DNA of 64,000 nt from a phage, in sequence record PV467749.1; one strand, 5' to 3'. A program made the position numbers and the translations under genes. The notes beneath the pieces were generated by a model. It ran no database searches. It had not been told where the DNA came from and saw only the letters and a list, made by a program, of their open reading frames with translations. This document shows positions 12,717 through 29,199 of the stretch, piece after piece (the first letter of the stretch is position 1; every line of letters begins with the position of its first letter).

Positions 12717-13117
12717 ACTTTACCAGGGAAGTGTTTCTCGTAGAACTCATCATCACTTAACATATAATCAGGTGTTTCTACTTCTATGGGTTTGTAGAAT
12801 GTTTCTGGAATGTGTGTAATTTTATTGGGTAGTACTTTATGTTCGCGTAAAACCTTCTGTATAGCTCCTAGACGTTGTAAATCAATACAGCCCGGCAGAA
12901 CTAAGCTGTACTGAAATAGCTCATCAGGGGTCATTATAGATACATCCTTGGCTTGTTTGATTTTATTGTTGGCATTAATGAATATATCAAATCCAAGTAC
13001 TGCATTATAGCTTACATATGTTGTTTTGTTTTTGTCAATAGCTGCACTTAAACTATATCCATATATTCCATGTTGGTCAACAATGCATCGTTGCATAATT
13101 TTAATCATTTCGAACAT
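12704..13117 (-). CDS. family A (FQ-motif) paralog
   Basis: 137 aa; motif DELFQYSL. Confidence 0.55.
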   Translation of the reverse strand: MFEMIKIMQRCIVDQHGIYGYSLSAAIDKNKTTYVSYNAVLGFDIFINANNKIKQAKDVSIMTPDELFQYSLVLPGCIDLQRLGAIQKVLREHKVLPNKITHIPETFYKPIEVETPDYMLSDDEFYEKHFPGKVWRD

Positions 13118-13463
13118 AATTTACCTCGTATGTGTTATAATTCCACGTTTTAACACTATCCATTTGTATATCCTGAACTTCATGGAAATATTTAAGTACC
13201 TTCTGGTATTCCATTAGTTCGTACACATCTTCAGTATTGACAGTGCTCTCCTGAAACAATTCCTCTTCTGATAAAGTACTATAATCAGGGATTTTTATTT
13301 CAGAATATATCTCATTCATATATGAATCATTTTGGTAAATCTGTAGATAAAACTGATTATATTCAGGGATATAGGTTACGAAATGGTTCTTGATGAATTC
13401 ATATCTTGAAGCAAAGCAATCATTGCCATCCGTCATGTACTGAATTGTTGTTGTATTATGCAT
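13101..13463 (-). CDS. family A (FQ-motif) paralog
   Basis: 120 aa; motif EEELFQEST. Confidence 0.55.
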   Translation of the reverse strand: MHNTTTIQYMTDGNDCFASRYEFIKNHFVTYIPEYNQFYLQIYQNDSYMNEIYSEIKIPDYSTLSEEELFQESTVNTEDVYELMEYQKVLKYFHEVQDIQMDSVKTWNYNTYEVNYVRND

Positions 13464-13938
13464 TCAAATAATCCACGCATTTATGGTATACATCTAAATC
13501 TAAAAAGAATCGTTGTTTGTATTTGTAATGATGAAGTAGTGCACCATAAAGTAATATAGCATTAAGTACTTTTGCATCATGAATACAAGACCCTTGGAAG
13601 TACATTTCTTCTGTCATGAAAACTAACTCATTGTACGGGATAAGCACTGAATCTCTAAATGTATCAATGTTAATCTTCAAATCGGACCCTTGGCAATATG
13701 AAATATATTCACCTCGGTAATGAAAGTCATTATCGTCAAAGTACTCAGCATATACTTGATTGTTCCTATTATTTTTAAAGGCAAGTCTTCCTTTGGTTGA
13801 ACTGAATTGGTCATATTGGAACATTCCACCAAAAGGCATTCCACCGAAAGGTTGGGGACTTCTGAACTCCTTTGCAATGCGATGAATGTTAGATGCAAAT
13901 TCTAAAACACCATCGTAATCATATTCTGTTGTAATCAT
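13456..13938 (-). CDS. family A (FQ-motif) paralog
   Basis: 160 aa; motif EEMYFQGSC. Confidence 0.55.
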   Translation of the reverse strand: MITTEYDYDGVLEFASNIHRIAKEFRSPQPFGGMPFGGMFQYDQFSSTKGRLAFKNNRNNQVYAEYFDDNDFHYRGEYISYCQGSDLKINIDTFRDSVLIPYNELVFMTEEMYFQGSCIHDAKVLNAILLYGALLHHYKYKQRFFLDLDVYHKCVDYLNA

Positions 13939-14414
13939 AGACCATTTTTCTCCATGTACTCAATGATTTCATCTACGAAGTTTAAATCCATATAGAATCT
14001 ATCATTTGCGTCATTGAGTTCATCTTTAAGTACTGTAAAAATTGTAGAACTAAACACGATTCTCTCATTGTACAAAGTACTGTACTGGAAGAATTCTTCT
14101 TCTGATCTAACATTAAATGTGTCATATTCATCATCATCATTAGATCTAGGATGATAGTACTTAAAACTATCAGATGTATGGAAACAATATGAGATAAAAT
14201 CCCCTGATGGTGCATCGTCAAGTACACGAATACCACAGAAATTCTCATCTGTAGTATGCAACAAATTGCTATTCATTGACAAATAATTTTTGTACGCATA
14301 AAGTGTGCATCGTGGGAGAATTATATTCTCTTTAACTGTTACAAGGAACTTATGAAGTTTAATGATATTTTGTGCGATTTTTTGTGCATTGCTAAATGAT
14401 AGGTCTTTGGACAT
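13935..14414 (-). CDS. family A (FQ-motif) paralog
   Basis: 159 aa; motif EEEFFQYST. Confidence 0.55.
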   Translation of the reverse strand: MSKDLSFSNAQKIAQNIIKLHKFLVTVKENIILPRCTLYAYKNYLSMNSNLLHTTDENFCGIRVLDDAPSGDFISYCFHTSDSFKYYHPRSNDDDEYDTFNVRSEEEFFQYSTLYNERIVFSSTIFTVLKDELNDANDRFYMDLNFVDEIIEYMEKNGL

Positions 14415-14473
14415 TGTGATATAACCCTTTACAATTAATATAAAGAGATTATATCACAAAGATTTGGAGGGTG

Positions 14474-15064
14474 TCAAGAGTTCTCACGAAGTTCTACCAT
14501 TTCTTTCCATACTAAATGGTAATCTTCTAAGTCCAGATAGAAGTCTTCATTTAAGTGCTCATATAAGTACTTGTACATGAATAGTACACCTAAATTGTAT
14601 TCAGTAGTAAGCAATGATTGTTGGAAGTAGTTTTCTTCATTTAGTTCTATATCCATGAACTCAAATCTACCTAGACCTTTTAATGTACGTATCTCAACAT
14701 GTGAAGTATCTGTTTTACTGAAGCACATGAATCCACCTCTAAATTCGGGATCATATTCACATTCATACTGTCCACTGTTATTATAGAAATCTCTATTACC
14801 ATCCTTATCTTTTGGCTTAACAACTGATACGTGAAGGTCGTCATCTTTGTACATTGTACGTTCTGGCGTTTTCACACATTTTAACTTATTTTCTTTAATG
14901 TACTTGATAATATCAATTATATCTTGTGCAGTACTGATTGCTGCCTCGAACGTATCCAACTTAAGATGATTGTATAGAGTTCCCTCGTTCTTTATTTTAT
15001 CTAACATACTAACCTCATAGTTCATACATCTTTGATTTGAATTGCATTGGTCCACCAACTTCAC
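14474..15064 (-). CDS. family A (FQ-motif) paralog
   Basis: 196 aa; motif EENYFQQSL. Confidence 0.55.
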   Translation of the reverse strand: MKLVDQCNSNQRCMNYEVSMLDKIKNEGTLYNHLKLDTFEAAISTAQDIIDIIKYIKENKLKCVKTPERTMYKDDDLHVSVVKPKDKDGNRDFYNNSGQYECEYDPEFRGGFMCFSKTDTSHVEIRTLKGLGRFEFMDIELNEENYFQQSLLTTEYNLGVLFMYKYLYEHLNEDFYLDLEDYHLVWKEMVELRENS

Positions 15065-15353
15065 ATGGATAATTTTCCATAATACGATTCAAAAGTATCT
15101 GGTACTGTTGTAGTACTTCAATTTCCAAATGTATACTACTATCCAGTACTAATGACTCCTGAAACAATTCACCTGTATCTAAACCTGAAAAATCATTTAT
15201 AGTTAGCATTGGCTTATCATTTGTACGCAATGTAAATGATTCCTCATTTCGGATTAATGTACAGAATTCATTATGTTTTCTGTTATAATTCATTTTAACT
15301 AATAATAACTTAGTGTGAGTTGCGTACATTATTTTTACTAATTCAGTCTTCAT
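15015..15353 (-). CDS. family A (FQ-motif) paralog
   Basis: 112 aa; motif GELFQESL; start may be downstream. Confidence 0.5.
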   Translation of the reverse strand: MKTELVKIMYATHTKLLLVKMNYNRKHNEFCTLIRNEESFTLRTNDKPMLTINDFSGLDTGELFQESLVLDSSIHLEIEVLQQYQILLNRIMENYPCEVGGPMQFKSKMYEL

Positions 15354-15702
15354 AACGGAATAAAATTCTCCTGTACTGCTCCGGCTTAGTACTCAATCTC
15401 TTCACCGGATAATTGTCGAAGATCCTTTTCATTTCTTTCTGGATTAAACAAAGAAAATCAAAATCACAATAGTATTTTTTATCCCATACTAAACTTTCTT
15501 GAAATAACTCATCTTCTTGCATTAGCGTAGTATCAATCGTATCTTCACGTGTATTTGAGTACGCTTCATGACATTGAAATCCATCTTCTGACAATTCTAA
15601 TGTATATGCCGCCATTTCAAACATATCATCATTTGTCTTTAACGAAAGTAAACAACAAACGTATTTTTTCGTTGTGTAGTACGTAATACTAATGGTATTC
15701 AT
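15343..15702 (-). CDS. family A (FQ-motif) paralog
   Basis: 119 aa; motif EDELFQESL. Confidence 0.55.
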   Translation of the reverse strand: MNTISITYYTTKKYVCCLLSLKTNDDMFEMAAYTLELSEDGFQCHEAYSNTREDTIDTTLMQEDELFQESLVWDKKYYCDFDFLCLIQKEMKRIFDNYPVKRLSTKPEQYRRILFRYED

Positions 15703-15707
15703 GGCAT

Positions 15708-16310
15708 TTAAACCTCAGTATAAAGCTTACAATAGCTTTCATCGAAATCAAAAATACTTCTCAAGAACTGACAAAGGTCAGTAAAAATATTTACATTTGC
15801 TATATACACATTATCAAATTCTGTTCTTTCGAAGAATGTATGCATAGAATTTGTAATATATCTCATTGCAGATTCACGCTGCATTGTTATATCATTTGTG
15901 AACATCGCATCTTCATCAGTACTGACTAATTCAATATCAAATGATTGCATATATGGGATACTCTTCCCTAGTGCAAAGCTATCACCGTATGATGCTTCAA
16001 CTGCACCTTTAGAATACACCAATTGATATAAGTCCGAAATAGGGTTATAAAAAGTACGACATATTGATGAACATAATTTATTATCTATCCAAAAGAAAAC
16101 CCTATTTGTATTACCGTCAAATGCTATACGCAATCCATCACCATCTAACGATATATCACCATCGAGATTAAAAGAGAACTGAACTAATGCTTTTTCTAAG
16201 TCCATTCTTTTGTGATAAATGATTTCTTGCATATAGATAATATCATTTACTAATTTCTTAAAATACAAATGAACCTCAGTACTACAACATTTATTTGCAT
16301 TTAATAACAT
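15708..16310 (-). CDS. hypothetical protein
   Basis: 200 aa; no FQ motif. Confidence 0.5.
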   Translation of the reverse strand: MLLNANKCCSTEVHLYFKKLVNDIIYMQEIIYHKRMDLEKALVQFSFNLDGDISLDGDGLRIAFDGNTNRVFFWIDNKLCSSICRTFYNPISDLYQLVYSKGAVEASYGDSFALGKSIPYMQSFDIELVSTDEDAMFTNDITMQRESAMRYITNSMHTFFERTEFDNVYIANVNIFTDLCQFLRSIFDFDESYCKLYTEV

Positions 16311-16897
16311 AGTAGTTCCTTATACATTGCGTGTATTCTTTCAATATCTCTGTAATAACTCATATCTTCACGAGTATCATTAAAAATAGTAACACTGAAT
16401 ATATTAATACTAATTGAACTATTATCAATGTACTCTTTTAATTTATTATAAAGATATATACATTTAGTAGATGTATCATCCCACATAAGACTATTTTGAA
16501 AGATGTTTTCTTCTGTATTAGGATATAAGTACTGGTCAATATTGTACTCCAATGAACTATCACAGTTTTTATATACAGAAATAGATGGAAAATTTTTATT
16601 GTACATAATACTAATAACATTATCATTGTATGTAGAAATTAAACTGGTACTGGATGCTACACTTTCATCATAATTCAGTACTGAAATTCTTGCATTATCT
16701 GTGCAGTACAGATGTTTCATTCCACCTCTCATAGCCATAGTAAGAAATTTATCAGTGAACCATATTCCTTTTGTTTTCAGTATAGTTTCATGCATAAGAT
16801 AAGTTTCAATGAAGATTTTTACACGCTCAAATGCTAAGTCAAGTTCATTGTACATAACGGATATCCTTCTGTAAAGAATCAATATATTCTTTAACAA
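16301..16897 (-). CDS. family A (FQ-motif) paralog
   Basis: 198 aa; motif EENIFQNSL. Confidence 0.55.
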   Translation of the reverse strand: MLKNILILYRRISVMYNELDLAFERVKIFIETYLMHETILKTKGIWFTDKFLTMAMRGGMKHLYCTDNARISVLNYDESVASSTSLISTYNDNVISIMYNKNFPSISVYKNCDSSLEYNIDQYLYPNTEENIFQNSLMWDDTSTKCIYLYNKLKEYIDNSSISINIFSVTIFNDTREDMSYYRDIERIHAMYKELLCY

Positions 16898-17036
16898 CTT
16901 GTTCCTGATACTGTGTGCCCAAATACATCAGTACTTTTAACTCTTTGAATTCAGTACTATATGAGTCGGTTTGCATCATTTTAGAAGAATATATATTGAA
17001 TAGTTTGGCAATATCATCTTGGTCTATTATTTTCAT
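16845..17036 (-). CDS. family B (LGTNYQE-motif) small protein, outlier copy
   Basis: 63 aa; motif YLGTQYQEQVV. Confidence 0.5.
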   Translation of the reverse strand: MKIIDQDDIAKLFNIYSSKMMQTDSYSTEFKELKVLMYLGTQYQEQVVKEYIDSLQKDIRYVQ

Positions 17037-17241
17037 ATATTCTCTTCTGGATTAGTTCCTGTAAGTGCTGAATATAACCCTTCATTGCAACATCCTGTTT
17101 GTTAGAGCCAACGAAGAACAATAGCTTAAAGTCATGGTAATCCATTTTTGGTTTAGTAGTGAACCATATGTCCCACACTGCCCTCACAGTTCTCATGTAT
17201 TCAATTCGATTAAATGTTTTTGAATACTTCATCGAAATCAA
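17014..17241 (-). CDS. family B-like small protein
   Basis: 75 aa; degenerate motif FVGSNKQDVAM. Confidence 0.4.
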   Translation of the reverse strand: MISMKYSKTFNRIEYMRTVRAVWDIWFTTKPKMDYHDFKLLFFVGSNKQDVAMKGYIQHLQELIQKRIYENNRPR

Positions 17242-17743
17242 CCTTTAATAAATTGATATTTAAATTACTGTTAAATGCCATCTGCAATTCCATATAGAAC
17301 TGAATAATAGCATAGTCAGGATCAGTACAAGATAGTTGAAAGCACTGTTCTTCAAATGAATTGTAATTGTACTTAGGAATATTAATAGTACGATATAACT
17401 CTGGATAACCCCATATCATAGTGTACACGTCAATTTCAGTACACTTTTTCTTAAAAGTCATCTGTCGAATAGTTTCAGATCTGGATTCAAGGTATACAAC
17501 ATTCTTATGAACGGCTGAACCAATTGAAAGCAATGATGTATCAATGACGTGTTTCTCACGTATCTCACACTTCTGGAATGCACCATTCCCTTGTAGAAGT
17601 TTATGGAAATCGTACTTCTCACTAATAACTGTACTAGGATCAATTAATCCAGTACTGCATTTTTTCAGTACTGGTACGATAGTGCGAATTTTTTTTGATA
17701 AATCTTGTAATGCATCATAATCATTAATGTTAATTTTTCTCAA
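17210..17743 (-). CDS. family A (FQ-motif) paralog
   Basis: 177 aa; motif EEQCFQLSC. Confidence 0.55.
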   Translation of the reverse strand: MRKININDYDALQDLSKKIRTIVPVLKKCSTGLIDPSTVISEKYDFHKLLQGNGAFQKCEIREKHVIDTSLLSIGSAVHKNVVYLESRSETIRQMTFKKKCTEIDVYTMIWGYPELYRTINIPKYNYNSFEEQCFQLSCTDPDYAIIQFYMELQMAFNSNLNINLLKVDFDEVFKNI

Positions 17744-18185
17744 AGGATGCCTCTTCTATAGTAACGAAATCAACTAACCTATCCAGATTTTCAGTGTCAA
17801 GATAAAATACATCCAGTACTGACTTCTGATATAGTACACTAAATGTACATAGATTGTCAAGTGTTCCTTCATTATAAACAGTACTTCCCTGGAAGTACCC
17901 TTCTTCTGTACTCAGAGATAAAATATCAGAAATTTTAAAAGATTCTTCATTCTCATGACGCTCTATCGTAACTTCATCATATTTTCTGTTCAATGAAATA
18001 TAATCGTATGCTAACTCAATTAGACTATAATTATCCGCATTAGTATCAAATAAAGAATCAATTGTAATCTTCGTGCCATTAGAAACTTCTCTTCGTTCAT
18101 CATCTACGTATTCAGGATTTTCTTTGAAGAACTTAACAACTTTTAGAATATCATTTGCTTTCTTGATTGCACTTTCGTAACTCAT
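17730..18185 (-). CDS. family A (FQ-motif) paralog
   Basis: 151 aa; motif EEGYFQGST. Confidence 0.55.
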   Translation of the reverse strand: MSYESAIKKANDILKVVKFFKENPEYVDDERREVSNGTKITIDSLFDTNADNYSLIELAYDYISLNRKYDEVTIERHENEESFKISDILSLSTEEGYFQGSTVYNEGTLDNLCTFSVLYQKSVLDVFYLDTENLDRLVDFVTIEEASFEKN

Positions 18186-18624
18186 TTTTTCTGGACTCCA
18201 TATATATTACCTGATTTAGTTCATATACATAATCTAAATCAATGAATATAGAATTATTAAAGTTCTCTTGCAGGAATGCATTAAAAACTACTAAAGCTCT
18301 TAACGCCCCATTTGGGTATATAGTACTGTACTGGAAGTAAGCATCTTCTGAATTTAAAAATAGTACTTCTTCTTCTGTGAATTCAAAATATTTTCCACCT
18401 TCCTCTATATAATAGAAAGTTCCAGAATCCCATACGAAGTACTTGAATTCCAAATCATAATCATGGGACTCGTACTTATATTCATTACCTAATCCTAGAA
18501 TATCTGTACCAACACTTATAGTACTAATATATGCCCCTTTATAGTCTAAGTACTTTACATTATTTTGAAAGAACTTTACTATATTAACTAATTCCTCAGC
18601 GTGCTTAAGATCACTTTCGTACAT
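18151..18624 (-). CDS. family A (FQ-motif) paralog
   Basis: 157 aa; motif EDAYFQYST. Confidence 0.55.
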   Translation of the reverse strand: MYESDLKHAEELVNIVKFFQNNVKYLDYKGAYISTISVGTDILGLGNEYKYESHDYDLEFKYFVWDSGTFYYIEEGGKYFEFTEEEVLFLNSEDAYFQYSTIYPNGALRALVVFNAFLQENFNNSIFIDLDYVYELNQVIYMESRKNELRKCNQESK

Positions 18625-18938
18625 TATATTTCAATCTCTATATATTTTTGGGTAATTAAGTAATCCCAGTAGTACTTCACATGTTTTTGTATCTCAAGTA
18701 AAGCATAAAAATTAATTCTCTTATCCCATACAAGTGATTCCTGAAAAATAAATGATTCATGATCATCTCTGTAATCACATTCAAGGAAGTCAGGAAGATA
18801 ATCACAATCGTGAAGATATTCAATCATTAAAGATTCATTACATCTTCTAACGGCAAGGTGCTGGAAATTATCATGATCGAAGAAATACATTAAACTAATT
18901 GTACCTGGAATGTACTGAATACTGTATAATAATTTCAT
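18624..18938 (-). CDS. family A (FQ-motif) paralog
   Basis: 104 aa; motif ESFIFQESL. Confidence 0.55.
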   Translation of the reverse strand: MKLLYSIQYIPGTISLMYFFDHDNFQHLAVRRCNESLMIEYLHDCDYLPDFLECDYRDDHESFIFQESLVWDKRINFYALLEIQKHVKYYWDYLITQKYIEIEI

Positions 18939-19378
18939 CGTTTACCCTTATGTTCGGCACGTACATATTCATAATCCAAATAAAACCTTGTACTATCAAT
19001 ACTTTTAAAGTACCACATAATAACTAAAGTATCTAGTACTTCATCATCATACAAAGTACTATTCTGAAAGTAATACTCTTCACTATCCCACGGACCTTTC
19101 AGTACTTCAAAGTTCAATTTTAAAGGTCTGCTGCGATTATAAAAACGGATTTCACCACCATAAGCATAACTGATAAATTCTGCATCTGGATTGTATTGTG
19201 AAAAATCTGCGGGACTTTTGGAATTCAGCCCAAGAATAACTGTAGTTGTGGTAAAATCACTATCCTTGTAGTAGTTACCATTCTCGGCTTTGTATACTTC
19301 TTCGAACTTCCCAGCCTTAATATCTTCAATATATGCCTGTAGTTCTTTTGCTTTATCAAGAGCACTTTGTAATGACAT
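18935..19378 (-). CDS. family A (FQ-motif) paralog, subgroup PWDSEEYYFQ
   Basis: 147 aa; motif EEYYFQNST; one of 4 near-identical tandem copies. Confidence 0.6.
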   Translation of the reverse strand: MSLQSALDKAKELQAYIEDIKAGKFEEVYKAENGNYYKDSDFTTTTVILGLNSKSPADFSQYNPDAEFISYAYGGEIRFYNRSRPLKLNFEVLKGPWDSEEYYFQNSTLYDDEVLDTLVIMWYFKSIDSTRFYLDYEYVRAEHKGKR

Positions 19379-19844
19379 TATCTTCCCCTACAGTATTCTC
19401 TACGTATTCATAATCGAAATAGAAACTATCAGAACCAATACTTTTAAAGTACCACATAATTACAATAACATCTAATTCTTCTTCATTGTACACAGTACTG
19501 TTCTGGAAGTAATATTCTTCACTATCCCACGGACCTTCTAGTACTGAATACGGAATGATTGTGTCATAATCATCGTAATCAGGGCTGTAAATTATAATAT
19601 CTTCATCTCTACAATAACTAATGTACTGATTGTACATATGATATTCACAGTCATCAGTATCACCCGTATCAGTGTGTAGTACTAACGTTTCTGCATGTAT
19701 CTCTGACTCATCATAATCGTCGCGGTCTTTTACAAAAAATTCAGTATCAGATGTTTTATACACACCAGGCACTGAACCTTCTTGTACCATAATCATGTAC
19801 TCATGAATCTTCTTTGCTTCTTTCAATGCACTTTCTAATGACAT
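19356..19844 (-). CDS. family A (FQ-motif) paralog, subgroup PWDSEEYYFQ
   Basis: 162 aa; motif EEYYFQNST. Confidence 0.6.
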   Translation of the reverse strand: MSLESALKEAKKIHEYMIMVQEGSVPGVYKTSDTEFFVKDRDDYDESEIHAETLVLHTDTGDTDDCEYHMYNQYISYCRDEDIIIYSPDYDDYDTIIPYSVLEGPWDSEEYYFQNSTVYNEEELDVIVIMWYFKSIGSDSFYFDYEYVENTVGEDNVITKCS

Positions 19845-19846
19845 TA

Positions 19847-20287
19847 CTAATCCCCTGTACTTAAATATTCACATGCTCCCCAGTCAAGGAAGAAGGGTTC
19901 AAAATTCAATTCCTTAAAGTACCACAAAACAACCAAGGAATCAAGCATTTCTTGGTTAAAAATAAGACTCTGTTGGAAGTAATACTCTTCAGTACCCCAC
20001 GGTCCATCAAGTACCCCGAAGTCAACAGGTGTATTTGATGTGTCAAAAGTAATCTTAGTACCTGGAATATATACAAAAAAACTAGTATATTGACTACATG
20101 AAGAGTACTGTATAGTATTGTCTTTATCATGGCCCATAAGTAAAATATCATCAGAGTATGTCTTTATACCTGATAGATAATACTCATTACCAAATGCACT
20201 TACTTTATCACCATAGAAACCACTTTTTATGTTATCGTGGAAGTGATGTATTTTGTGTGCCAGTTTAAGTGCACTTGCTAAACTCAT
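19847..20287 (-). CDS. family A (FQ-motif) paralog, subgroup PWDSEEYYFQ
   Basis: 146 aa; motif EEYYFQQSL. Confidence 0.6.
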   Translation of the reverse strand: MSLASALKLAHKIHHFHDNIKSGFYGDKVSAFGNEYYLSGIKTYSDDILLMGHDKDNTIQYSSCSQYTSFFVYIPGTKITFDTSNTPVDFGVLDGPWGTEEYYFQQSLIFNQEMLDSLVVLWYFKELNFEPFFLDWGACEYLSTGD

Positions 20288-20754
20288 ATATCCTCTTTAA
20301 TAACTCGTAGTAGATCCAAGTCCAGATAGAAGCTAGGACAATCGGTATTATTAAAGTACCACAGAATGACAAGCTTGTCAAGCACATATTCCTCGTAGAT
20401 AGTATTCTGCTGGAAGTAGAACTCTTCACTTCCCCAGTCATTATCCAGTACTGAATACGGAAGATGTTTCTCTGCTGCACCAGTTTTAATGTCAGTATCT
20501 TGTATTAAAATATCAGCATCACGACAGAAGTACATGTAATTATCTTCCAGATTAACAACACACCCATTGAGTGTTGTTTCAGAAGAATCTAAGTTTTCTT
20601 CATACATGTGAATGTACTCACTACTGTCATCGTATATCATTCGACAATAAGCTTTACCTTCCTTGAATAGATACCCATTGAGACGATTGAGTACTATTTC
20701 CTTTTTACATAAATCAATTAACTTAGCAATTTCTAATGCTCTTGCAAAACTCAT
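20284..20754 (-). CDS. family A (FQ-motif) paralog, subgroup PWDSEEYYFQ
   Basis: 156 aa; motif EEFYFQQNT. Confidence 0.6.
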   Translation of the reverse strand: MSFARALEIAKLIDLCKKEIVLNRLNGYLFKEGKAYCRMIYDDSSEYIHMYEENLDSSETTLNGCVVNLEDNYMYFCRDADILIQDTDIKTGAAEKHLPYSVLDNDWGSEEFYFQQNTIYEEYVLDKLVILWYFNNTDCPSFYLDLDLLRVIKEDI

Positions 20755-20755
20755 A

Positions 20756-20941
20756 TCAACTCCTGTGTTGTGTCTTGATATAATCTCGGTAAACCATGTG
20801 AATATTAGCTATATACAATTCACTAATATCATATGTACCGAAGTACATGTCATTCCTAATGCTGTTGTTATGTCTAATATCAATTACGAATCGTCGAAGT
20901 ATTGTATTCATGAATGATTCCATTTGTTCTTTTTTATTCAT
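20756..20941 (-). CDS. hypothetical small protein
   Basis: 61 aa ORF filling the gap between array members. Confidence 0.4.
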   Translation of the reverse strand: MNKKEQMESFMNTILRRFVIDIRHNNSIRNDMYFGTYDISELYIANIHMVYRDYIKTQHRS

Positions 20942-21282
20942 AGCTTAAAACGATACCTATCTTTGGAATCAGTCTCTATACAGATTCTTCTATATTCTTT
21001 CATCTTCTGTTGGAGTTCAATAACTTCCTCTAGTGTACACAAGTACTTCTTGTCAAATATTAATGACTCTTGAAATATTTCAGCCTCACCCTGTACAGTT
21101 GTATAGTCTTTCATATTTTCTACAACTGTTCCTTTGGACTGATAATCAATTAAGCTAAAGTAAGAACCATTAAATTTAATGTACTGATCCATTTTGTGTT
21201 CATAATCACCTTTGTTAAGATTGCAATACACTTCCAGTGAAGTACTAATCTTAGGTATAAACATAGAAAAATCATATGTCAT
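20938..21282 (-). CDS. family A (FQ-motif) paralog, subgroup FDKKYLCT
   Basis: 114 aa; motif AEIFQESLIFDKKYLCT. Confidence 0.6.
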   Translation of the reverse strand: MTYDFSMFIPKISTSLEVYCNLNKGDYEHKMDQYIKFNGSYFSLIDYQSKGTVVENMKDYTTVQGEAEIFQESLIFDKKYLCTLEEVIELQQKMKEYRRICIETDSKDRYRFKL

Positions 21283-21638
21283 TATGTAATTCCTATATTG
21301 AATTTGTATTCTTGATTAATACTTACATTGGATGTATTCAAAGCAGCATACTCTTTCATTTCATTTTGTATTGTAATAACTTCTTCAAATGTACACAAGT
21401 ACTTCTTATCAAATACTAATGCAGCTTGGAATAGTTCAGCGGCATCCATTACTGTATAATCCGGCATATCTTGATGTGGATACTGTAATGAATCGTAATC
21501 AATAAATGTAAATTTACCCTGAGTGTAATGAATATACTCATTTGCACTGTGCATTAAATCACCTTTGTTTAAATTACAAAAGTACTGAAAACTGTTCTTA
21601 AAAGAATGTACTGATATTACAAAATCAAATTCCATCAC
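21282..21638 (-). CDS. family A (FQ-motif) paralog, subgroup FDKKYLCT
   Basis: 118 aa; motif AELFQAALVFDKKYLCT. Confidence 0.6.
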   Translation of the reverse strand: MMEFDFVISVHSFKNSFQYFCNLNKGDLMHSANEYIHYTQGKFTFIDYDSLQYPHQDMPDYTVMDAAELFQAALVFDKKYLCTFEEVITIQNEMKEYAALNTSNVSINQEYKFNIGIT

Positions 21639-22048
21639 TCTTCCCCTAGATTGAAATGATTACTAAAATTAGTTTCACCAGTTTTACACCATTTATCTAT
21701 ACATTCCCTGTGAATGCATTTAATTCTACGCTGGATTTCAACAATCTCTTCTAATGTACAGATGTACTTCTTGTCAAATACTAATGACTCCTGAAATAGT
21801 GCAGCATCATCCATTAAGGTATAGTCCAGCATATCGGTTGCTTTACAACTAAATCCAGTACCAAGATCCATTAAATAAAATTGTGAATTCCAGAACTTTA
21901 TAACCTTGCCCCTTGTGTAGTTTAAATCACCTTTGTACAAATTACAACACGTAATCAACTCACCCGTGTACATCCATGTCCCTATACAAAATTCATTATA
22001 TTTTATTTCCATAATAATCTCTACTGTAATTAATAAGGTAAACTCCAA
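21635..22048 (-). CDS. family A (FQ-motif) paralog, subgroup FDKKYLCT
   Basis: 137 aa; motif AALFQESLVFDKKYICT. Confidence 0.6.
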   Translation of the reverse strand: MEFTLLITVEIIMEIKYNEFCIGTWMYTGELITCCNLYKGDLNYTRGKVIKFWNSQFYLMDLGTGFSCKATDMLDYTLMDDAALFQESLVFDKKYICTLEEIVEIQRRIKCIHRECIDKWCKTGETNFSNHFNLGEE

Positions 22049-22210
22049 TATAAGGAGAACGTTTGCGGGGGCGGGGTATTTTTTGTTTCAGGAAACATGA
22101 ACTGTACTCTGTGAACACATTTTAAAACTTTATATTAAACATATACCTTAACATGTTTTTCAGCGAAAATTTTTTTGACCCCCCCAGCGGCCTGTGAAAA
22201 CGAAACGTCT

Positions 22211-22426
22211 CTATTTATTCAGCCTAGAAATCTTGATTTCTTCAATCCTTTTCATTGCACAAAGCCTTCGACTCGTCTTCTCGTATATATTCAATACTCG
22301 TTGTACTGCATTATCTGCATCTGCAATCTGAACCAAATATGTATCCTTCAAAATCGAATCCATCATGTATTCAAAACCTTTCACACTATAGCAATATACC
22401 ACTTCCGGCTCTTCAAACGTAATCAT
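22211..22426 (-). CDS. hypothetical small protein
   Basis: 71 aa ORF, minus strand. Confidence 0.4.
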   Translation of the reverse strand: MITFEEPEVVYCYSVKGFEYMMDSILKDTYLVQIADADNAVQRVLNIYEKTSRRLCAMKRIEEIKISRLNK

Positions 22427-22616
22427 AATTCCAATCCCCTATCCCATCTAACCTTCTAAGATATCTTGCGTAAATTATTTCGAAATATCTGTGCAACGAA
22501 ATTACGGATTGCTCATAATCATCATTCCTGTACATTGTGCATGTAAGAAAATCATTTAAACCGTAATCTAAACTGCACTTGAACTTCTCCTTTGCAACAT
22601 CTCTAAAATTATCCAT
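22413..22616 (-). CDS. hypothetical small protein
   Basis: 67 aa ORF, minus strand. Confidence 0.4.
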   Translation of the reverse strand: MDNFRDVAKEKFKCSLDYGLNDFLTCTMYRNDDYEQSVISLHRYFEIIYARYLRRLDGIGDWNYDYV

Positions 22617-22770
22617 AATATGTCCTCTGCACAGCGTAGGTGTACTGTGAACTCAGCACCGTTAATAGGTAATCTATGTTGTAAGCACGATTTCCTCGTT
22701 GACTAGCACGGCTAGAATAAAGAATATTATCCACATATGTATCGAACTGTTCTTCAAATAACTCTTTCAT
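22609..22770 (-). CDS. hypothetical small protein (below ORF-track cutoff)
   Basis: 53 aa ORF read by hand (MKELFEEQFDTYVDN...); its stop overlaps the ATG of 22413-22616; weak SD. Confidence 0.3.
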   Translation of the reverse strand: MKELFEEQFDTYVDNILYSSRASQRGNRAYNIDYLLTVLSSQYTYAVQRTYYG

Positions 22771-22779
22771 CAGCACCCT

Positions 22780-23334
22780 TTAGCACCCTTTAACAACTTT
22801 TGAAATGTAATCTTCTAATGCACCAATGTTCTTTGTATTCGTTCGAACTAAAAGATAACTTAAATCCTCGAACTCCTGAACATAATGCTTAACAGCGTAC
22901 ATGCATCGTAATTCAAAATCTGTATGAACCGTTTTGTACTGAAATAACATCTCTTCTGAAGCCTCTAAAAGCTCTGTGGCTTGTTCTGTACTGAACTTAA
23001 AGGGATTCTGTACTCCTGAACTAAAACACTTTTGTTCGTTCGTCTGGACACCCTGTGATAGATATAATCCTGTGCTACCATCTTGTGTTGATATCGAATT
23101 GAAACCATTACTTGCAACCATTAAATCTGAACTCAATACAAATAATAATTTATCTTCCTTATGAATTAATAAATCTGACTTCAGGGATTTTATTCCTGTA
23201 CTGGTTATATCACCTATACTAAGATTGTCACTGAACTTCTCAGCGTTGTTCGCAATGCTCTGGACAAGATTTTTTAATCTCTTAATGGCACTTCTGTCTT
23301 TTTCTAATGTATCTAATAAACTCATTGAACTCAT
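22780..23334 (-). CDS. family A (FQ-motif) paralog
   Basis: 184 aa after trimming to the ATG with an AGGAA SD; motif EEMLFQYKT. Confidence 0.5.
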   Translation of the reverse strand: MSSMSLLDTLEKDRSAIKRLKNLVQSIANNAEKFSDNLSIGDITSTGIKSLKSDLLIHKEDKLLFVLSSDLMVASNGFNSISTQDGSTGLYLSQGVQTNEQKCFSSGVQNPFKFSTEQATELLEASEEMLFQYKTVHTDFELRCMYAVKHYVQEFEDLSYLLVRTNTKNIGALEDYISKVVKGC

Positions 23335-23344
23335 TGTACTTTCC

Positions 23345-23689
23345 TTACATATTTGTACCGAACAAAACGGAACTTTGAATGCCATTAATCGACACTTCAT
23401 GTACATATATATTTTGTCTGAATACCTGAAGCAATTGAACTAAACTCTGTTGCATAATAATATGCATCGCTAAATTATCAAAGGCCGTTTCGTATTGGAA
23501 TCGTGCAGCTTCATCTTCTATGAAATTCGGAACTTGGACTGGATTTTCAAAATTTGTCCTTGTACTGAACTGTACATCATTGTCCTGTACCTTAATACCA
23601 TATGAATTATCATTGTTATCAACTACATCAAATTCAATTAAACTACCATCTTTACTGACGTTTACTATATAAACTGAAAATCTACTCAT
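23345..23689 (-). CDS. family A (FQ-motif) paralog
   Basis: 114 aa; motif AARFQYET. Confidence 0.5.
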   Translation of the reverse strand: MSRFSVYIVNVSKDGSLIEFDVVDNNDNSYGIKVQDNDVQFSTRTNFENPVQVPNFIEDEAARFQYETAFDNLAMHIIMQQSLVQLLQVFRQNIYVHEVSINGIQSSVLFGTNM

Positions 23690-24204
23690 AATCCTATTTC
23701 CTTTAAATCTTCCAAAAATGTTTCATAATCACTTAAGGAAAAAAAGATATCCGTATCGATGTTCGCATCTAATACATTATACAAATTCTGCATCTGTAAC
23801 ACATCAGGAGCATCAATCAATGATTGCTGGAAATATGCAGCTTCATCTTCTAAAATATCCCTGAATGATCTCTCTCGTACTCTGTGGTGTACTGAATTGA
23901 ATATTGATTTCTCATCCTTAAGCATTGGTAGGTATCGAATGTACATGTGTTCTCTTAGCTCTGGACTGATGGAACCCCTGAACTGTAACACGTATTCGAA
24001 GCACATAACAACATCCTGAAGGTAATTGGCACTGTAATTATTGCTGTAAACAATCTTATGACTTCTGAACTCATCATCATTTCTGAACCAATTGTCACCT
24101 ACTCTGGTGTACTTATGACTAAGCAATCCACCCTCTAACGCTTTGATGATCTTCAAAATGTTGTGTGCAAATGCATATGATGTATTGTACTTGGCCTGAT
24201 ACAT
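23686..24204 (-). CDS. family A (FQ-motif) paralog
   Basis: 172 aa after trimming to ATG at 24202-24204 (GAGG SD); motif AAYFQQSL. Confidence 0.5.
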   Translation of the reverse strand: MYQAKYNTSYAFAHNILKIIKALEGGLLSHKYTRVGDNWFRNDDEFRSHKIVYSNNYSANYLQDVVMCFEYVLQFRGSISPELREHMYIRYLPMLKDEKSIFNSVHHRVRERSFRDILEDEAAYFQQSLIDAPDVLQMQNLYNVLDANIDTDIFFSLSDYETFLEDLKEIGL

Positions 24205-24217
24205 GTGTGCCTCAACC

Positions 24218-24412
24218 TTATCTTGTGTTAAAATATTCACTGAAATGATTATAACACAAAAGCACCACGATGTTAAGCACTCTGTTGTCAAAATCATCTT
24301 GTGATGTAGGATGCAAGGACGCATTGATGTTAAAATTCACTATATCATTGTGGAATTGGTATGTGAACAAATCAAACTTCGTATGCCTTTGTTTGATATC
24401 ATAGGCGGTCAT
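24218..24412 (-). CDS. hypothetical small protein
   Basis: 64 aa ORF between two array members. Confidence 0.4.
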   Translation of the reverse strand: MTAYDIKQRHTKFDLFTYQFHNDIVNFNINASLHPTSQDDFDNRVLNIVVLLCYNHFSEYFNTR

Positions 24413-24413
24413 A

Positions 24414-25022
24414 TTATATATTCAACCCTTTAACAATGGAAATAAATTCTTTGTATACATTTTCAGGTAAAGCTCTACTACCATAAAGAACACTAAATTC
24501 AGGTAACATATCCGAAATCTCTTTCGCTAAATTTATTTCATCCCTGAACATTTGCACAGGCATGATATCCTGTACCAATGATAACTGAAAGAAAAATGAT
24601 TCAATATCTTCATGCACCTCTGAATTTAAATAAATCTCTTCTGGAAACTGGGCTGTACTGTAATAATAAAATACGTCAATTCTTTTTTCATTATTTTGTA
24701 CAAGAGGTAAATTTCTTTCGTCTCTCTTATTAATATTTGTTTTCCATGACTCAATGTTATTCGGAACCCAAAACTCATAAGGTGTCTTCTCTCCTGAAAT
24801 ATTATCCAGCTTCAATCCATAATATTCACTTTCGCCGTACTTTTGCTTCAAAACAATACCTGTACTACTAATGTTTACAATGTACGTATCAACAATCCCT
24901 TCTGTGGTAAAAGGAATATTTAACTCTGAACCTTCAGGGTACTTAGCATTGAATGCATCTAATGCTTTACTTAGCACTGGAATTGCACTTGTACTGTACT
25001 TCATTAATTGGTCTATGTTCAT
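24414..25022 (-). CDS. family A (FQ-motif) paralog
   Basis: 202 aa; motif ESFFFQLSL. Confidence 0.55.
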   Translation of the reverse strand: MNIDQLMKYSTSAIPVLSKALDAFNAKYPEGSELNIPFTTEGIVDTYIVNISSTGIVLKQKYGESEYYGLKLDNISGEKTPYEFWVPNNIESWKTNINKRDERNLPLVQNNEKRIDVFYYYSTAQFPEEIYLNSEVHEDIESFFFQLSLVQDIMPVQMFRDEINLAKEISDMLPEFSVLYGSRALPENVYKEFISIVKGLNI

Positions 25023-25603
25023 TTTAATTCCCCTGTAATCATACTGATATTTGAACGATACATATCGTACACTGTACTTTCTTTCTTGTGCACAATGAAA
25101 TCATAAAGATCAACAAATGCAGGAATAATAATCTTGAATGATTTATTTGGGTACGTCCCAAAATCAACTGTACTCAATTTTGCAACGAGCATAACAACAA
25201 AGATTTCTTCTGGACTATGCAATGTACTGTACTGAAAATATTCCTCAGCACTCATGGCACTTATTGCATTTATATCTTGTGTTTGTAATGTAATATTAAG
25301 ATATTCAAAAATAGAATAAAACTCTGATTTTGTTTGTATTTTGTATTTGTCAATTGGGGTATCTCTCATGAACCATAAACGGTCCTGACCATAAAAAGGA
25401 ATGATTGAATTTGGGGAACCCAAAAAAACTTCTTCTCTATCAATATCCTTTAACTCAATTTGCATACCGGATGAATTGGCAATAATTAATTCATTAAAAA
25501 TGTAATGAACCTTGTGTACAATCTCTTGTACTGAATTGAAATCATCTGGTATTTTAAAATTTTCCATAGGTATCTCCTTAAAAATGATTACACATTGTAC
25601 CAT
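25019..25603 (-). CDS. family A (FQ-motif) paralog
   Basis: 194 aa; motif AEEYFQYST. Confidence 0.55.
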   Translation of the reverse strand: MVQCVIIFKEIPMENFKIPDDFNSVQEIVHKVHYIFNELIIANSSGMQIELKDIDREEVFLGSPNSIIPFYGQDRLWFMRDTPIDKYKIQTKSEFYSIFEYLNITLQTQDINAISAMSAEEYFQYSTLHSPEEIFVVMLVAKLSTVDFGTYPNKSFKIIIPAFVDLYDFIVHKKESTVYDMYRSNISMITGELK

Positions 25604-25640
25604 GCATTTGTACTCGTGTCAAACAAAAAAAGCCCATATC

Positions 25641-26138
25641 TTACGATACAGGCATGTTTATTTGAATTTCATTGTACAAATCATCAATATATAGACATGA
25701 AAACGATAAACTTTCTTTAACTATATTGTTGTGATAAAGCATTTTAAACACTATATAGAAAAATAAATCAATATCATCATGAACTAAATTCTGCTGGAAC
25801 CACCACTCTTCTGTTAAATCTTGTGCATTAAAATCATCAGGAACTTCAATTGACGACATATCAGCATCTTCTTTGTACTCAAACCACATGTCGTCATTTG
25901 GAAAACGTTCATGCTTCTCTGGGTAACAATTGCTGGGATTAAATGCTAAAATATAAAATACCGTCGCAGAATGTTCTTTATTAAAAAATGAATTATTCCA
26001 CACCTGATACCTTTCACCAACATCAAGCTCTTTTGATACTGATGTTATTGCACATAATGTACGATATATTGTTTCTATTTTGTGAACAAATTTAAAGGCT
26101 GCATCTAAACTAAACTCTAAATCAGACATGCGGTGCAT
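25641..26138 (-). CDS. family A (FQ-motif) paralog
   Basis: 165 aa; motif EEWWFQQNL. Confidence 0.55.
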   Translation of the reverse strand: MHRMSDLEFSLDAAFKFVHKIETIYRTLCAITSVSKELDVGERYQVWNNSFFNKEHSATVFYILAFNPSNCYPEKHERFPNDDMWFEYKEDADMSSIEVPDDFNAQDLTEEWWFQQNLVHDDIDLFFYIVFKMLYHNNIVKESLSFSCLYIDDLYNEIQINMPVS

Positions 26139-26458
26139 AAAATTACCTCAACTAAAATAAGAACGGTATTGAATTCGAGGCAACCTTTGATACCTTGATT
26201 GTACATGTACTTTGCTACTACATATTTCTGTACTAAATTATAATTATTAAATTCCTCAAAATTGTAATTTAGAATGAAATTTGTACTCAAAAATAACTTA
26301 TGCATCTCTAATGCACTCTGATAATATTTGTACAACTCACTGATATCAATACTTTGTAAATCACTTTGTTCATATGTATGATAAGGAATGGCGTCAATAT
26401 CAATATTATTAAACCATTCTCTTAACTTATTAATATCAAATGTATTATTCAGCTTCAT
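26117..26458 (-). CDS. hypothetical protein
   Basis: 113 aa; no clear FQ motif. Confidence 0.45.
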   Translation of the reverse strand: MKLNNTFDINKLREWFNNIDIDAIPYHTYEQSDLQSIDISELYKYYQSALEMHKLFLSTNFILNYNFEEFNNYNLVQKYVVAKYMYNQGIKGCLEFNTVLILVEVILCTACLI

Positions 26459-27023
26459 AACTCAATACCTCCATTAAGCACTCATAAACACCATCAATCG
26501 CATAAGCACAAAAACTGAAATTAATTTTGTTATTCTTGTGTAATGGACTATCGTGTACTGTACTCAACATAACACTATAAAACAAAGAACGTTCATGTGT
26601 AAATAATGATTCCTGAAAAAATGCTTCCTCTGATTTAATTTTATTATATTCAATCGATTGATCATTAGAATAAAATGAATCTTGATTTGAATTGTACCAT
26701 GTGTAATCCAAATCATTCTTTGATATAACTGGTGTTGGATTAAACTGTAAAAGACTAATAACACTACGGGCATTTGGGGTATCAGGTGTATTGAATCGTT
26801 TATCAAAATGACTCGTGCACGCAATATGTGAATCAAAATCAGATGGTTTAAACCCCATGAATGCGTTAATGATTCTTGTATATGGTTTTTTATTATGTGC
26901 TGCTTTCTGTACATTATATAAGGCTGCAACAATACAAGCTAACTTTTGTCCCATAAGGATTGCATTAGCGTAGGTGTACTGAATTTCATTGTACTCATTG
27001 CTTTCATTGTACTTCGAGATCAT
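26445..27023 (-). CDS. family A (FQ-motif) paralog
   Basis: 192 aa; motif EEAFFQESL. Confidence 0.55.
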   Translation of the reverse strand: MISKYNESNEYNEIQYTYANAILMGQKLACIVAALYNVQKAAHNKKPYTRIINAFMGFKPSDFDSHIACTSHFDKRFNTPDTPNARSVISLLQFNPTPVISKNDLDYTWYNSNQDSFYSNDQSIEYNKIKSEEAFFQESLFTHERSLFYSVMLSTVHDSPLHKNNKINFSFCAYAIDGVYECLMEVLSYEAE

Positions 27024-27345
27024 GGAACAGCCTCACTTTGCCTAACTCGTCATTGGATATAAATTCGTTAACAGCTTTCTGTATATTCCTTAATAATAGC
27101 ACATCAAATCCTTTTGTGTCAAGCACACATTGCATTTGGAAGAATTCTTCTTCTGATAATGTATTAAAATCCACAAAATTGTCTAATATTACGTCATTAT
27201 CCAAATGTGCCATGTGCCATGTATTTCTTTCGGAGCGTTTAATAAAATTCCATCCATCTGGATAATCGGGTTCTAATTCTACATATATCCCCGATACTGT
27301 ATAAAGCATTTTATATATCATAACTATTGTACTCATTGCTTTCAC
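27004..27345 (-). CDS. family A (FQ-motif) paralog
   Basis: 113 aa; motif LSEEEFFQMQC; close copy of 27342-27653. Confidence 0.6.
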   Translation of the reverse strand: MKAMSTIVMIYKMLYTVSGIYVELEPDYPDGWNFIKRSERNTWHMAHLDNDVILDNFVDFNTLSEEEFFQMQCVLDTKGFDVLLLRNIQKAVNEFISNDELGKVRLFHDLEVQ

Positions 27346-27653
27346 TGTACGTCGATGTCATAATACGCTCCTACCTCATAATCTTTCTTGCTTTGGAATT
27401 CATTAACGACTTTCTGTATATTTCTTAATGTTACCATGTCATGTCCGTACATGTCAACCACCAATTGCATTTGGAAAAATTCTTCTTCAGATAATGTATT
27501 AAAATCTATAAAATAATCCGTAACAACATGTTCGTCTAAATTTGCCATGTACCATTGATTGGTATCGACCTCTTTAACCAAATTCCATGCATCTGGATCG
27601 GATTCTAATTCTACATATATTAATGTTAATGTATACAGCATTTTATACTTCAT
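27342..27653 (-). CDS. family A (FQ-motif) paralog
   Basis: 103 aa; motif LSEEEFFQMQL. Confidence 0.6.
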   Translation of the reverse strand: MKYKMLYTLTLIYVELESDPDAWNLVKEVDTNQWYMANLDEHVVTDYFIDFNTLSEEEFFQMQLVVDMYGHDMVTLRNIQKVVNEFQSKKDYEVGAYYDIDVQ

Positions 27654-28203
27654 AACTATATCCTTGCATTAAAAGAACATAAGCAATATCAACTAATTCT
27701 AAACGAATGAAAAATTTTAAATTATCTTTCAATAGATTCAAATGCATTATACTAAACAACATAAGATACTTCATTTGATTTGTATTGTATATTAGGGATG
27801 TCTGAAATACTTCTGCTTCATTGTAAGGATCAATAAATTTTATACCTTCTTCACTGTAATCCGTTTTGGAATTCTGATATATAAAATAATCATCACCAGC
27901 ATTGTACCACAAATAACCTTCAAAACTAGAATCAAATTCTGAATTTTCATTTCGCATTAAAGGTGATACTGAAATTGGATTTGAACCAACTGTTGCACAA
28001 ACCTCAATGTAAGCATCTTCACTTCCCTTAACTTCCTCTTTGATTTTATCATTGTACTGTCCTGCAAAACCAGCTTTTACTTCCAAATATAAACTACTCC
28101 CAACTTTATTAATTCTTAAAAGGGAACTCTGTACTGTATTCGCATTGTTCAGCACTAACGATATTGTGCAAATCTTATGTACCAATAACTCAATATCATT
28201 CAT
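27643..28203 (-). CDS. family A (FQ-motif) paralog
   Basis: 186 aa; motif AEVFQTSL. Confidence 0.55.
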   Translation of the reverse strand: MNDIELLVHKICTISLVLNNANTVQSSLLRINKVGSSLYLEVKAGFAGQYNDKIKEEVKGSEDAYIEVCATVGSNPISVSPLMRNENSEFDSSFEGYLWYNAGDDYFIYQNSKTDYSEEGIKFIDPYNEAEVFQTSLIYNTNQMKYLMLFSIMHLNLLKDNLKFFIRLELVDIAYVLLMQGYSYEV

Positions 28204-28214
28204 ATTGGTATTCC

Positions 28215-28397
28215 TTAATTTGGTGGATTTGGATGTAATAAACGATCTTGATAATTTAAATGCTCTTGTAATATTGCACTAAGATAATAACTAAAATCAT
28301 TAATTCCACCCTTTAAATGTATATTGTAATACATCTTAATGCTTGTAATCAATGAATTATTTAAATCATCAAATGTTCTTGCTTCATATGATTTCAT
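28215..28397 (-). CDS. hypothetical small protein
   Basis: 60 aa ORF. Confidence 0.35.
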   Translation of the reverse strand: MKSYEARTFDDLNNSLITSIKMYYNIHLKGGINDFSYYLSAILQEHLNYQDRLLHPNPPN

Positions 28398-29188: not shown

Positions 29189-29199
29189 TAGGTATCTCC

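Follow-up and report, generated by a model that had tools for sequence, protein, structure and literature searches.

Does a row of neighbouring paralogs in a phage genome record duplications that are still going on, or duplications completed long ago? The question is raised by a stretch of phage DNA of 64,000 nucleotides (sequence record PV467749.1; the whole stretch is called the window here), in which four adjacent small genes at positions 18935-20754 (block 1) and three further genes at 20938-22048 (block 2) had been described, from the letters alone, as near-identical neighbours that arose by recent tandem duplication, unequal crossing-over and gene-accordion dynamics. Our analysis partly supports this original prediction: it bears out tandem duplication and unequal recombination but gives no support to recency or to accordion dynamics. 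Rather than recent near-identical copies, the blocks represent sub-clades of two large, mutually unrelated, phage-specific families, which we call A and B. We estimate a probability of about three in four that these lineage-specific families result from old local tandem duplication followed by birth and death of copies beside the left direct terminal repeat (DTR) of the genome.

The DNA between positions 18000 and 23000 is 96-97% identical to the Escherichia phages fEgEco12 and Turkey3 and matches 36 records only, all of them jumbo phages of about 350 kb similar to PBECO4 and 121Q (Asteriusvirus). On sequence grounds, the window is assigned to an Asteriusvirus-type (PBECO4/121Q-like) E. coli jumbo phage. 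Its minus strand is densely packed with small genes between about 0.7 and 62.7 kb. The fEgEco12 genome is linear, with a DTR of 20,993 bp that was confirmed experimentally (PMC13070987). Homology to this genome divides the window into a left arm (1-37.1 kb), one copy of the terminal repeat (about 37.1-58.1 kb) and the right end of the unique sequence (about 58.1-64 kb). Families A and B occupy about 34 kb immediately adjoining the left repeat on its inner side; in fEgEco12 itself, the repeat ends at 20,993 and family B begins with a gene at 21,091. At least 82 of the approximately 161 minus-strand open reading frames (ORFs) of the window fall into family A, family B or a third family, C.

The ORFs of the original prediction are all found where it placed them, on the minus strand. 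The end of block 2 needs a correction: the gene there is real, but position 22048 is an upstream TTG, and the start lies at 22012 according to the annotated orthologs of 125 amino acids in fEgEco12 and Turkey3. The paralogy within the blocks is beyond chance, with BLASTP expectation values (E) from 2e-14 to 3e-32 in block 1 and from 2e-20 to 3e-29 in block 2. The first two genes of block 1 match exactly the long segment reported as common to the block, PWDSEEYYFQNS..VIMWYFKS, but the other two read PWGTEEYYFQQS and DWGSEEFYFQQN. Near-identity is refuted by the protein comparisons: block 1 members share 30-43% of their residues and those of block 2 share 37-43%, and the best pair of the arrays reaches 71% (81% at the DNA level). 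The synonymous divergence (dS) is 1.1-2.8 in block 1, where synonymous sites are saturated, and 0.84-1.16 in block 2. At the DNA level, the block-1 genes resemble each other (82%, 61% and 66%) only in a segment of some 145 nt surrounding the motif, and elsewhere the identity amounts to 50-55%.

Members of family A were collected with an iterated hidden Markov model (HMM) seeded from the blocks and were counted at E < 1e-3, the cut-off used also for family B. In the family A motif (Table 1), the Phe and the Gln alone are invariant. The proteins of this family are 100-212 amino acids long and acidic (median isoelectric point, pI, 4.8; median charge -8), and the 30 family B proteins found by the iterated HMM are mildly basic (pI 8.6). 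Profile-profile comparison by hhalign revealed no relationship between the two families. All array members lie on the minus strand and abut each other, the genes overlapping by a median of 4 nt. PHROGs 9317, 12674, 15629 and 13866 match family A (E = 1e-34 to 5e-62), which is divided there into several unlinked groups, and PHROG 4148 matches family B (E = 2e-18 to 2e-19); all of them are labelled “unknown function”. Scans of ten members against Pfam, NCBIfam and PADLOC gave no match, as did a sequence search of the PDB with the 36-member family A profile, and these searches returned no curated profile or solved structure from known families or from defence and anti-defence proteins.

The age of the duplications relative to phage speciation is given by the orthologs. 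The block-1 genes (a1 to a4 in Table 1) have one-to-one orthologs that are 95-100% identical in fEgEco12 and Turkey3 and 70-89% identical in slurp01, mostly with a counterpart in A4 as well, as compared to 30-43% among the paralogs. For a1, which shares 41% of its residues with a2, the identities in fEgEco12, Turkey3 and slurp01 are 97%, 95% and 70%; for a2 they are 99%, 99% and 89%; for a3, 100%, 100% and 86% (97% in A4); and for a4, 97%, 96% and 83% (89% in A4 and 54% in Turkey5). In a neighbour-joining (NJ) tree, the four genes form four ortholog groups, each spanning three to five of the genomes compared, and the a4 group reaches the distant Turkey5. Every window gene of both families, except for 33257-33487, is closer to its fEgEco12 ortholog than to any paralog. 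The one-to-one orthologs mean that the duplications predate the radiation of the group comprising fEgEco12, Turkey3, slurp01 and A4. With each paralog having its own ortholog in other phages and with the synonymous sites of block 1 saturated, the proposed recent origin is without support.

The same holds for the gene accordion, i.e., young amplifications that are still expanding and contracting under current selection. Comparison of the whole window with itself, proposed as a check in the form of a dot-plot and made here by BLASTN, found 81% identity over 342 nt for the best array repeat and 82% over 145 nt for the best one in block 1. Inside the window arrays there is no repeat of at least 90% identity over at least 100 nt; the sole such repeat of the window (91.7% over 108 nt, 43667-44043) is in the terminal-repeat region. 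Near-identical tandem genes are absent also from the homologous 49-kb regions of fEgEco12, A4 and Turkey5, and in none of the four genomes do the arrays contain a repeat that long and that similar, so there is no sign of an accordion now expanding. An accordion would account for copy-number differences between isolates, for a recombination junction between adjacent paralogs (both described below) and for closest relatives lying side by side. However, it is hardly compatible with paralogs of 30-43% identity and saturated dS, with a youngest pair still at dS 0.38, with an own ortholog of each copy across species, or with the only mapped event being the loss of an old gene and not a gain. We regard ongoing amplification as very improbable.

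The further similar pairs of the original prediction (Table 1) are confirmed, with E as low as 4e-57: by start positions, 1e-39 for 27004/27342, 4e-57 for 30373/30729, 4e-26 for 31940/32146, and from 2e-19 to 3e-33 for 33010/33257/33477. The DNA of the pair 30373/30729 is 81% identical by BLASTN over 342 nt (30377-31071) and 82% when aligned by codons. Both of its copies have fEgEco12 orthologs (98-99%), and the best A4 match of each is 77%. Since A4 has one annotated gene of this size at the corresponding place, this duplication may postdate the A4 split, or A4 may have lost one copy. The middle gene of the family B triple (33257-33487) is the sole family member of the window lacking an fEgEco12 ortholog (its best identity, 54%, is that of its best paralog), which represents a gene-content difference between phages otherwise about 96-97% identical.

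The arrangement of the families speaks for duplication in place. The best match of a gene is its immediate neighbour within the family in 13 of the 36 family A members and in 12 of the 30 family B members, compared to an expectation of 2.0 +/- 1.6 and to maxima of 11 (A) and 10 (B) in 2000 permutations. The prediction that neighbours are more alike than distant members is thus correct at short range, but the array-wide gradient is weak: the adjacency signal consists of small local clusters and is not a gradient. The proposed comparison of phylogeny with position has a similarly divided outcome. The NJ tree of block 1 follows the gene order as a ladder, ((a1,a2),a3),a4; the exception is a fifth block-1 member, present in slurp01 and A4, which is sister to a2 and yet located beyond a4. 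Because the members are clustered and co-oriented and have their nearest relatives adjacent at short range, we conclude, in agreement with the original prediction, that the blocks arose by local tandem duplication.

Resemblance between neighbours might also be produced by concerted evolution, in which gene conversion homogenises adjacent copies. The genes a1 and a2 do form a mosaic, as their DNA identity is 81% (dS 0.6) over the 48 C-terminal codons and 43% over the N-terminal part, where dS is saturated. However, the orthologs group by gene and not by genome; the C-terminal segment of a1 is as close to its slurp01 ortholog as to a2 (78% in both cases), and that of a2 is nearer to its ortholog, at 89%. 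The stronger constraint on the C-terminal part (nonsynonymous divergence, dN, 0.17 vs. 0.79) explains most of the mosaic, so for this segment gene conversion lacks support from the ortholog comparison and constraint is the better explanation. We consider concerted evolution to be an improbable source of the neighbour resemblance in general.

Old as they are, the arrays turn over. The comparison of copy numbers between isolates that had been suggested does reveal differences, in which old, diverged genes were gained or lost. By HMM, the window has 36 members of family A and 30 of family B, vs. 39/31 in fEgEco12, 39/24 in A4 and 30/21 in Turkey5. A tblastn search with a2 hits 3-5 places per record across the 36 records, and slurp01 has the fifth block-1 member. 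Block 2 comprises three copies in the window vs. four full copies in fEgEco12, Turkey3 and slurp01; the missing gene is absent also from the phages vB_Ec-M-J and TH47, which are collinear with the window. This absence represents a loss, since the outgroup slurp01 has the gene (71% ortholog).

The site of the loss could be mapped to a junction at about 21270-21290 (Table 1). In a sliding comparison, the identity changes over between the stretches 21240-21269 and 21293-21322, the bin that separates them (21270-21292) being intermediate; the sequence upstream of the junction is the end of a b2-type gene, and downstream is the start of b1. The crossover lies within ATATGATT, an 8-nt identity common to the starts of the deleted gene and the adjacent b1, and as a result b1 now begins with MTYD, derived from the deleted neighbour, instead of MEYD. 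The junction thus falls at the 5' ends of two adjacent paralogs and is direct evidence of unequal or illegitimate recombination between them, in the form of a deletion, which bears out the predicted unequal crossing-over between neighbours. A different rearrangement is seen in Turkey3 (7004-7533) and slurp01 (6848-7374), where an unrelated gene of 123 amino acids followed by an ORF of 53 amino acids stands between two block-2 genes. Within the short ORF, 28 residues duplicate a part of the b2-type gene; neither the window nor fEgEco12 has this extra segment, which resembles an insertion accompanied by partial duplication of the target.

Copies that persist are functional and under purifying selection. 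The aggregate dN/dS vs. fEgEco12 is 0.29 for family A (36 genes) and 0.33 for family B (27 genes), compared to 0.26 for 17 genes of the terminal repeat, and for six orthologs compared with slurp01 it ranges from 0.08 to 0.6. Pervasive positive selection as the cause of the divergence between species is therefore not supported, the aggregate dN/dS of about 0.3 being like that of the flanking genes.

Several observations weigh against our preferred explanation, some of them against duplication in place alone. Array-wide Mantel correlations are weak (r = -0.10, p = 0.08 for family A; r = -0.14, p = 0.06 for family B), and the NJ tree carries no bootstrap support values. Promoter-like sites are not enriched inside the arrays in a sigma-70 scan (115 vs. 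113 expected), and no transcript or protein data for Asteriusvirus genes were found. Reciprocal best matches of family A to A4 and Turkey5 are 36-37% identical vs. 94-98% for the neighbouring terminal-repeat genes. This low identity, combined with ordinary short-term rates (dN and dS over the short term are similar in the array and terminal-repeat regions), indicates that the pattern derives partly from exchange of divergent cassettes between phages. Such similar rates imply one of two histories: a recent exchange of the repeat, or arrays that consist of ancient, divergent cassettes. The contrast extends beyond family A: between 2800 and 37100, genes of family A and non-family genes alike are 32-37% identical to those of A4 and Turkey5, as compared to 94-98% for the terminal-repeat genes at 37100-57000. 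In family B, the reciprocal best matches are 69% to A4 and 39% to Turkey5.

One can go further and suggest that the arrays were assembled by exchange, as mosaics of cassettes swapped among co-infecting related phages, with the blocks being imported segments. The jumps of A4 identity among adjacent genes (97% for a3, 89% for a4, 61% for a2 and 46% for a1), the contrast between family A and the flanking repeat, and the unrelated gene with its duplicated fragment in Turkey3 and slurp01 are in line with this. However, exchange reshuffles existing members; it explains neither the presence of 36 and 30 homologous genes nor the side-by-side position of the closest relatives, and as the families are confined to this phage group, the copies must have arisen within it. 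As a full explanation, assembly by exchange seems unlikely to us; the data point to cassette exchange between phages superimposed on old duplication.

We therefore favour old tandem duplication followed by birth and death. Repeated local tandem duplication would have built the two families long before the present phage species split, presumably through unequal or illegitimate recombination between adjacent, co-oriented and abutting genes. Afterwards, the copies would have diverged strongly, chiefly in the N-terminal half of family A, each being retained by purifying selection, and occasional deletions or insertions of single genes and replacements of cassettes would have produced the copy-number differences between isolates. 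Homology of the members, their clustering, co-orientation and adjacency, purifying selection together with gain and loss, and restriction to one lineage are all found here, as is typical of a birth-and-death family.

Table 1. Features of the window by position. Percentages for paralogous genes are protein identities; aa, amino acids.
Feature	Position	Strand	Description
Family A array	3331..31067	minus	Motif [ST]EE..FQ.S[LT][IV]; 36 members by iterated HMM, ~45 ORFs by motif scan
Family B outliers	16845-17036, 17014-17241, 28913-29188
a1 (block 1)	18935..19378	minus	147 aa; family A long form; PHROG 9317 (E = 2e-50)
a2 (block 1)	19356..19844	minus	162 aa; family A long form; modelled with AlphaFold2
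a3 (block 1)	19847..20287	minus	146 aa; ORF, BLASTP, PHROG
a4 (block 1)	20284..20754	minus	156 aa; ORF, BLASTP, PHROG
b1 (block 2)	20938..21282	minus	114 aa; family A short form; PHROG 15629
Deletion junction	21270..21290	minus	One gene (~366 bp) missing vs. fEgEco12, Turkey3 and slurp01; overlapping BLASTN pieces
b2 (block 2)	21282..21638	minus	118 aa; full-length ortholog of fEgEco12 locus 6648-7004
b3 (block 2)	21635..22012	minus	125 aa from ATG; 99% over 125 aa to fEgEco12 and Turkey3 orthologs
Family A short-form pair	27004-27345, 27342-27653	minus	59%; dS 0.69
Family B main array	30154..37005	minus	LGTNYQ motif; 65-94 aa; 27 of 30 members
Youngest pair in the window	30373-30714, 30729-31067	minus	71%; dS 0.38
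Family B pair	31940..32388	minus	LGTNYQ; 51-56%
Family B triple	33010..33713	minus	46-63%; outer two 63%
Intergenic gap with inner DTR boundary	37006..37254	.	Boundary at ~37,100 by fEgEco12 homology
28-nt perfect hairpin	38559-38586, 41316-41343, 44581-44608, 48267-48294	minus	AAAGGGATTGACTCCGGTCAGTCCCTTT; three identical copies and one variant
Dispersed paralogs in the terminal-repeat region	41971-42546; 53151-53420 + 55196-55474; 43350-43673 + 49861-50184; 42859-43263 + 54841-55143		Non-tandem; 35-85%; spacing 0.3-12 kb
Family C array	57876-62038	minus	16 proteins of ~62 aa; pI ~8

The predicted structure of family A separates a conserved part from a variable one. For a2, AlphaFold2 used with 22 paralogs gave a confident model (predicted local distance difference test, pLDDT, 80.9; predicted template modelling score, pTM, 0.78), which comprises a helix at the N terminus, a disordered linker, a meander of five strands and a helical C-terminal module. 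The N-terminal half of the family is strongly diverged, and the C-terminal helical module is conserved around the invariant Phe-Gln. The EEYYFQ motif forms a short helix in this model, in blocks with a mean pLDDT of 97-98, and the preceding [ST]-x-x-E pattern may act as a helix N-cap, which it resembles. Matches to the fold of family A are limited to proteins of RaK2, GAP32, fHe-Yen9-03 and Serratia BF. Family B is modelled by AlphaFold2 as a four-helix protein (pLDDT 94.6) with generic structural neighbours only. The likeness of EEYYFQNS to a protease site of the tobacco etch virus (TEV) or 3C type (E-x-x-Y-x-Q followed by S or G) was also considered and rejected: the residue after the Gln varies (N, Q, E, Y, L, G, M, T), the Ser is at +2, and the motif is within a confidently folded helix and not in an exposed flexible segment.

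Family A is restricted to a narrow range of phages. A search of 5.8e9 proteins yielded 32 clusters, whose sources are exclusively contigs of about 350 kb or E. coli, and the 36-member profile found 173 representatives among 1.84e9 proteins. The 150 listed of these representatives are all 55-212 amino acids long, except for one repeat protein of 773 amino acids, which is probably a false positive, and the distant representatives that were inspected all bear the family A motif. Distant members are known from the Salmonella phages Munch and SE_PL and from their relative, Klebsiella phage fENko-Kae01. In the latter, an array of family A (at least 18 HMM matches) starts at 19,759, right after the annotated DTR end at 19,736, and no family B was found. 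The position of the array at the terminal-repeat boundary is thus conserved in another genus. One family A protein of fENko-Kae01, ENKO_077 (19145-19630, motif DGGELFQFSTVHDF), is annotated as detected by liquid chromatography-tandem mass spectrometry (LC-MS/MS); since the sample was an ultrafiltered lysate, this indicates its expression and not its association with the virion.

The neighbourhood of the arrays offers some indications of when they may be expressed. On the minus (coding) strand of the terminal-repeat region (37.4-57.3 kb), there are 12 perfect TTGACA-16/17-TATAAT sites, 96 promoter-like sites vs. 62 +/- 8 expected and 26 terminator-like sites vs. 13 expected, with gene gaps of about 82 bp; near-perfect sigma-70 sites are also numerous there, at one per intergenic gap. 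Judged by these sites, the region bears a signature of early genes read by the host RNA polymerase. The arrays are co-oriented with this promoter-rich region and lie directly downstream of it, and a few good promoter-like sites occur in their rare gaps (37063-37036, 30147-30119 and 25622-25594, the last just after a terminator). It is plausible that the arrays are expressed early or delayed-early, as long operons. The 28-nt hairpins of the terminal-repeat region (Table 1) hold a -35-like hexamer, TTGACT, followed by TATTAT, and are part of longer intergenic repeats (about 100-220 bp), among which the identity is 75-89% (e.g., 41135-41356 vs. 48088-48307). The hairpin may serve the early region as a common regulatory element.

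Our best guess, which we infer from this context and from the small, acidic and soluble-looking proteins of family A, is that the arrays encode early or delayed-early accessory proteins which would bind host or defence components, each paralog having its own target. One can extend this tentatively to the whole of family A, as a previously undescribed fold family of about 20-45 copies per genome, always located just inside the left terminal repeat of Rak2-like jumbo phages (Asteriusvirus, the Munch/fENko-Kae01 group and, by fold, RaK2 and GAP32), and serving as a modular early arsenal: the shared module would bind a common partner and the variable part, with its helix and beta-meander on the N-terminal side, a paralog-specific host or defence target. 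We consider this extended reading rather doubtful at present; if it is true, the contrast of 36-37% vs. 94-98% would mark the main determinant of host range and counter-defence in these phages. Asteriusvirus and other Rak2-like jumbo phages are under development for therapy, and more than 80% of their genes are unannotated. An old, selected and species-variable gene set is an obvious place to seek host-range or counter-defence functions.

Paralogs are abundant also beyond families A and B. In fEgEco12, the position of family C (Table 1) corresponds to the right end of the unique sequence, adjoining the right terminal repeat, so arrays of paralogs flank the repeat on both sides. In this family, unlike A and B, similarity correlates strongly with distance (Mantel r = -0.58, p = 0.0004). 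The two families, or three with family C, make up roughly a tenth of the genome, about 34 kb and about 5 kb flanking the terminal repeat. The terminal-repeat region contains dispersed paralog pairs; its G+C content (37400-57300) is 37-40% vs. 31-33% in the paralog arrays, and the GC skew changes sign at about 58 kb.

Among known systems, the nearest to the original prediction are the gene accordions of poxviruses, such as the amplification of K3L, in which tandem arrays of host-interaction genes are recent, near-identical and transient. The arrays studied here share with them the making and removal of tandem copies by recombination and the resulting copy-number differences, but they are old, diverged and orthologously conserved, and lack the defining features of an accordion. 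A working analogy is provided by the MGF360/505 families of African swine fever virus (ASFV), the terminal host-range families of poxviruses and the hyperplastic early regions of T4-like phages, all of which comprise dozens of diverged small accessory paralogs. The likeness lies in the position near the termini, the strain-variable content and the birth and death of members; there is no relationship in sequence or fold, and the hosts in our case are bacteria. A lineage-specific expansion of small proteins in a jumbo phage is represented also by the zinc ribbons of Bacillus phage G, of which there are about 35 copies (Iyer et al. 2021, PMC7824862). Its fold and phage lineage are different, a zinc-ribbon motif is absent from families A and B, and a term search of that paper gave no passage on them.

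The closest precedent belongs to the same phage group. Hua et al. (2017, mBio, PMC5646251) noted more than 30 similar tandem genes in a 121Q-type genome and proposed that the genome grew by tandem duplication; 121Q is among the tblastn matches of a2, and the phenomenon and its interpretation are the same as ours. Both family B (30) and family A (36-45) fit the count given for 121Q. The passages of that paper on the array contain no coordinates, family definition or age, and their “very similar” overstates the 25-60% identity found here. In the literature on fEgEco12, Sharanji, UE-S1, phAPEC6, CBB and fENko-Kae01 and in jumbo-phage reviews, we found tandem arrays mentioned only by Hua et al. 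and in a one-line echo in the phAPEC6 paper. The tandem-array phenomenon is therefore already known for Asteriusvirus-type phages. We found no description in this literature of the family A superfamily, its motif, predicted fold or some 45 copies, of the age of the duplications or the recombination junction, or of the location of the two arrays beside the terminal-repeat boundary, which family A shows in a second genus as well. The arrays can be regarded as fossils of the growth of a jumbo genome by tandem duplication, as Hua et al. proposed, which are subject to slow turnover and do not represent an accordion in action.

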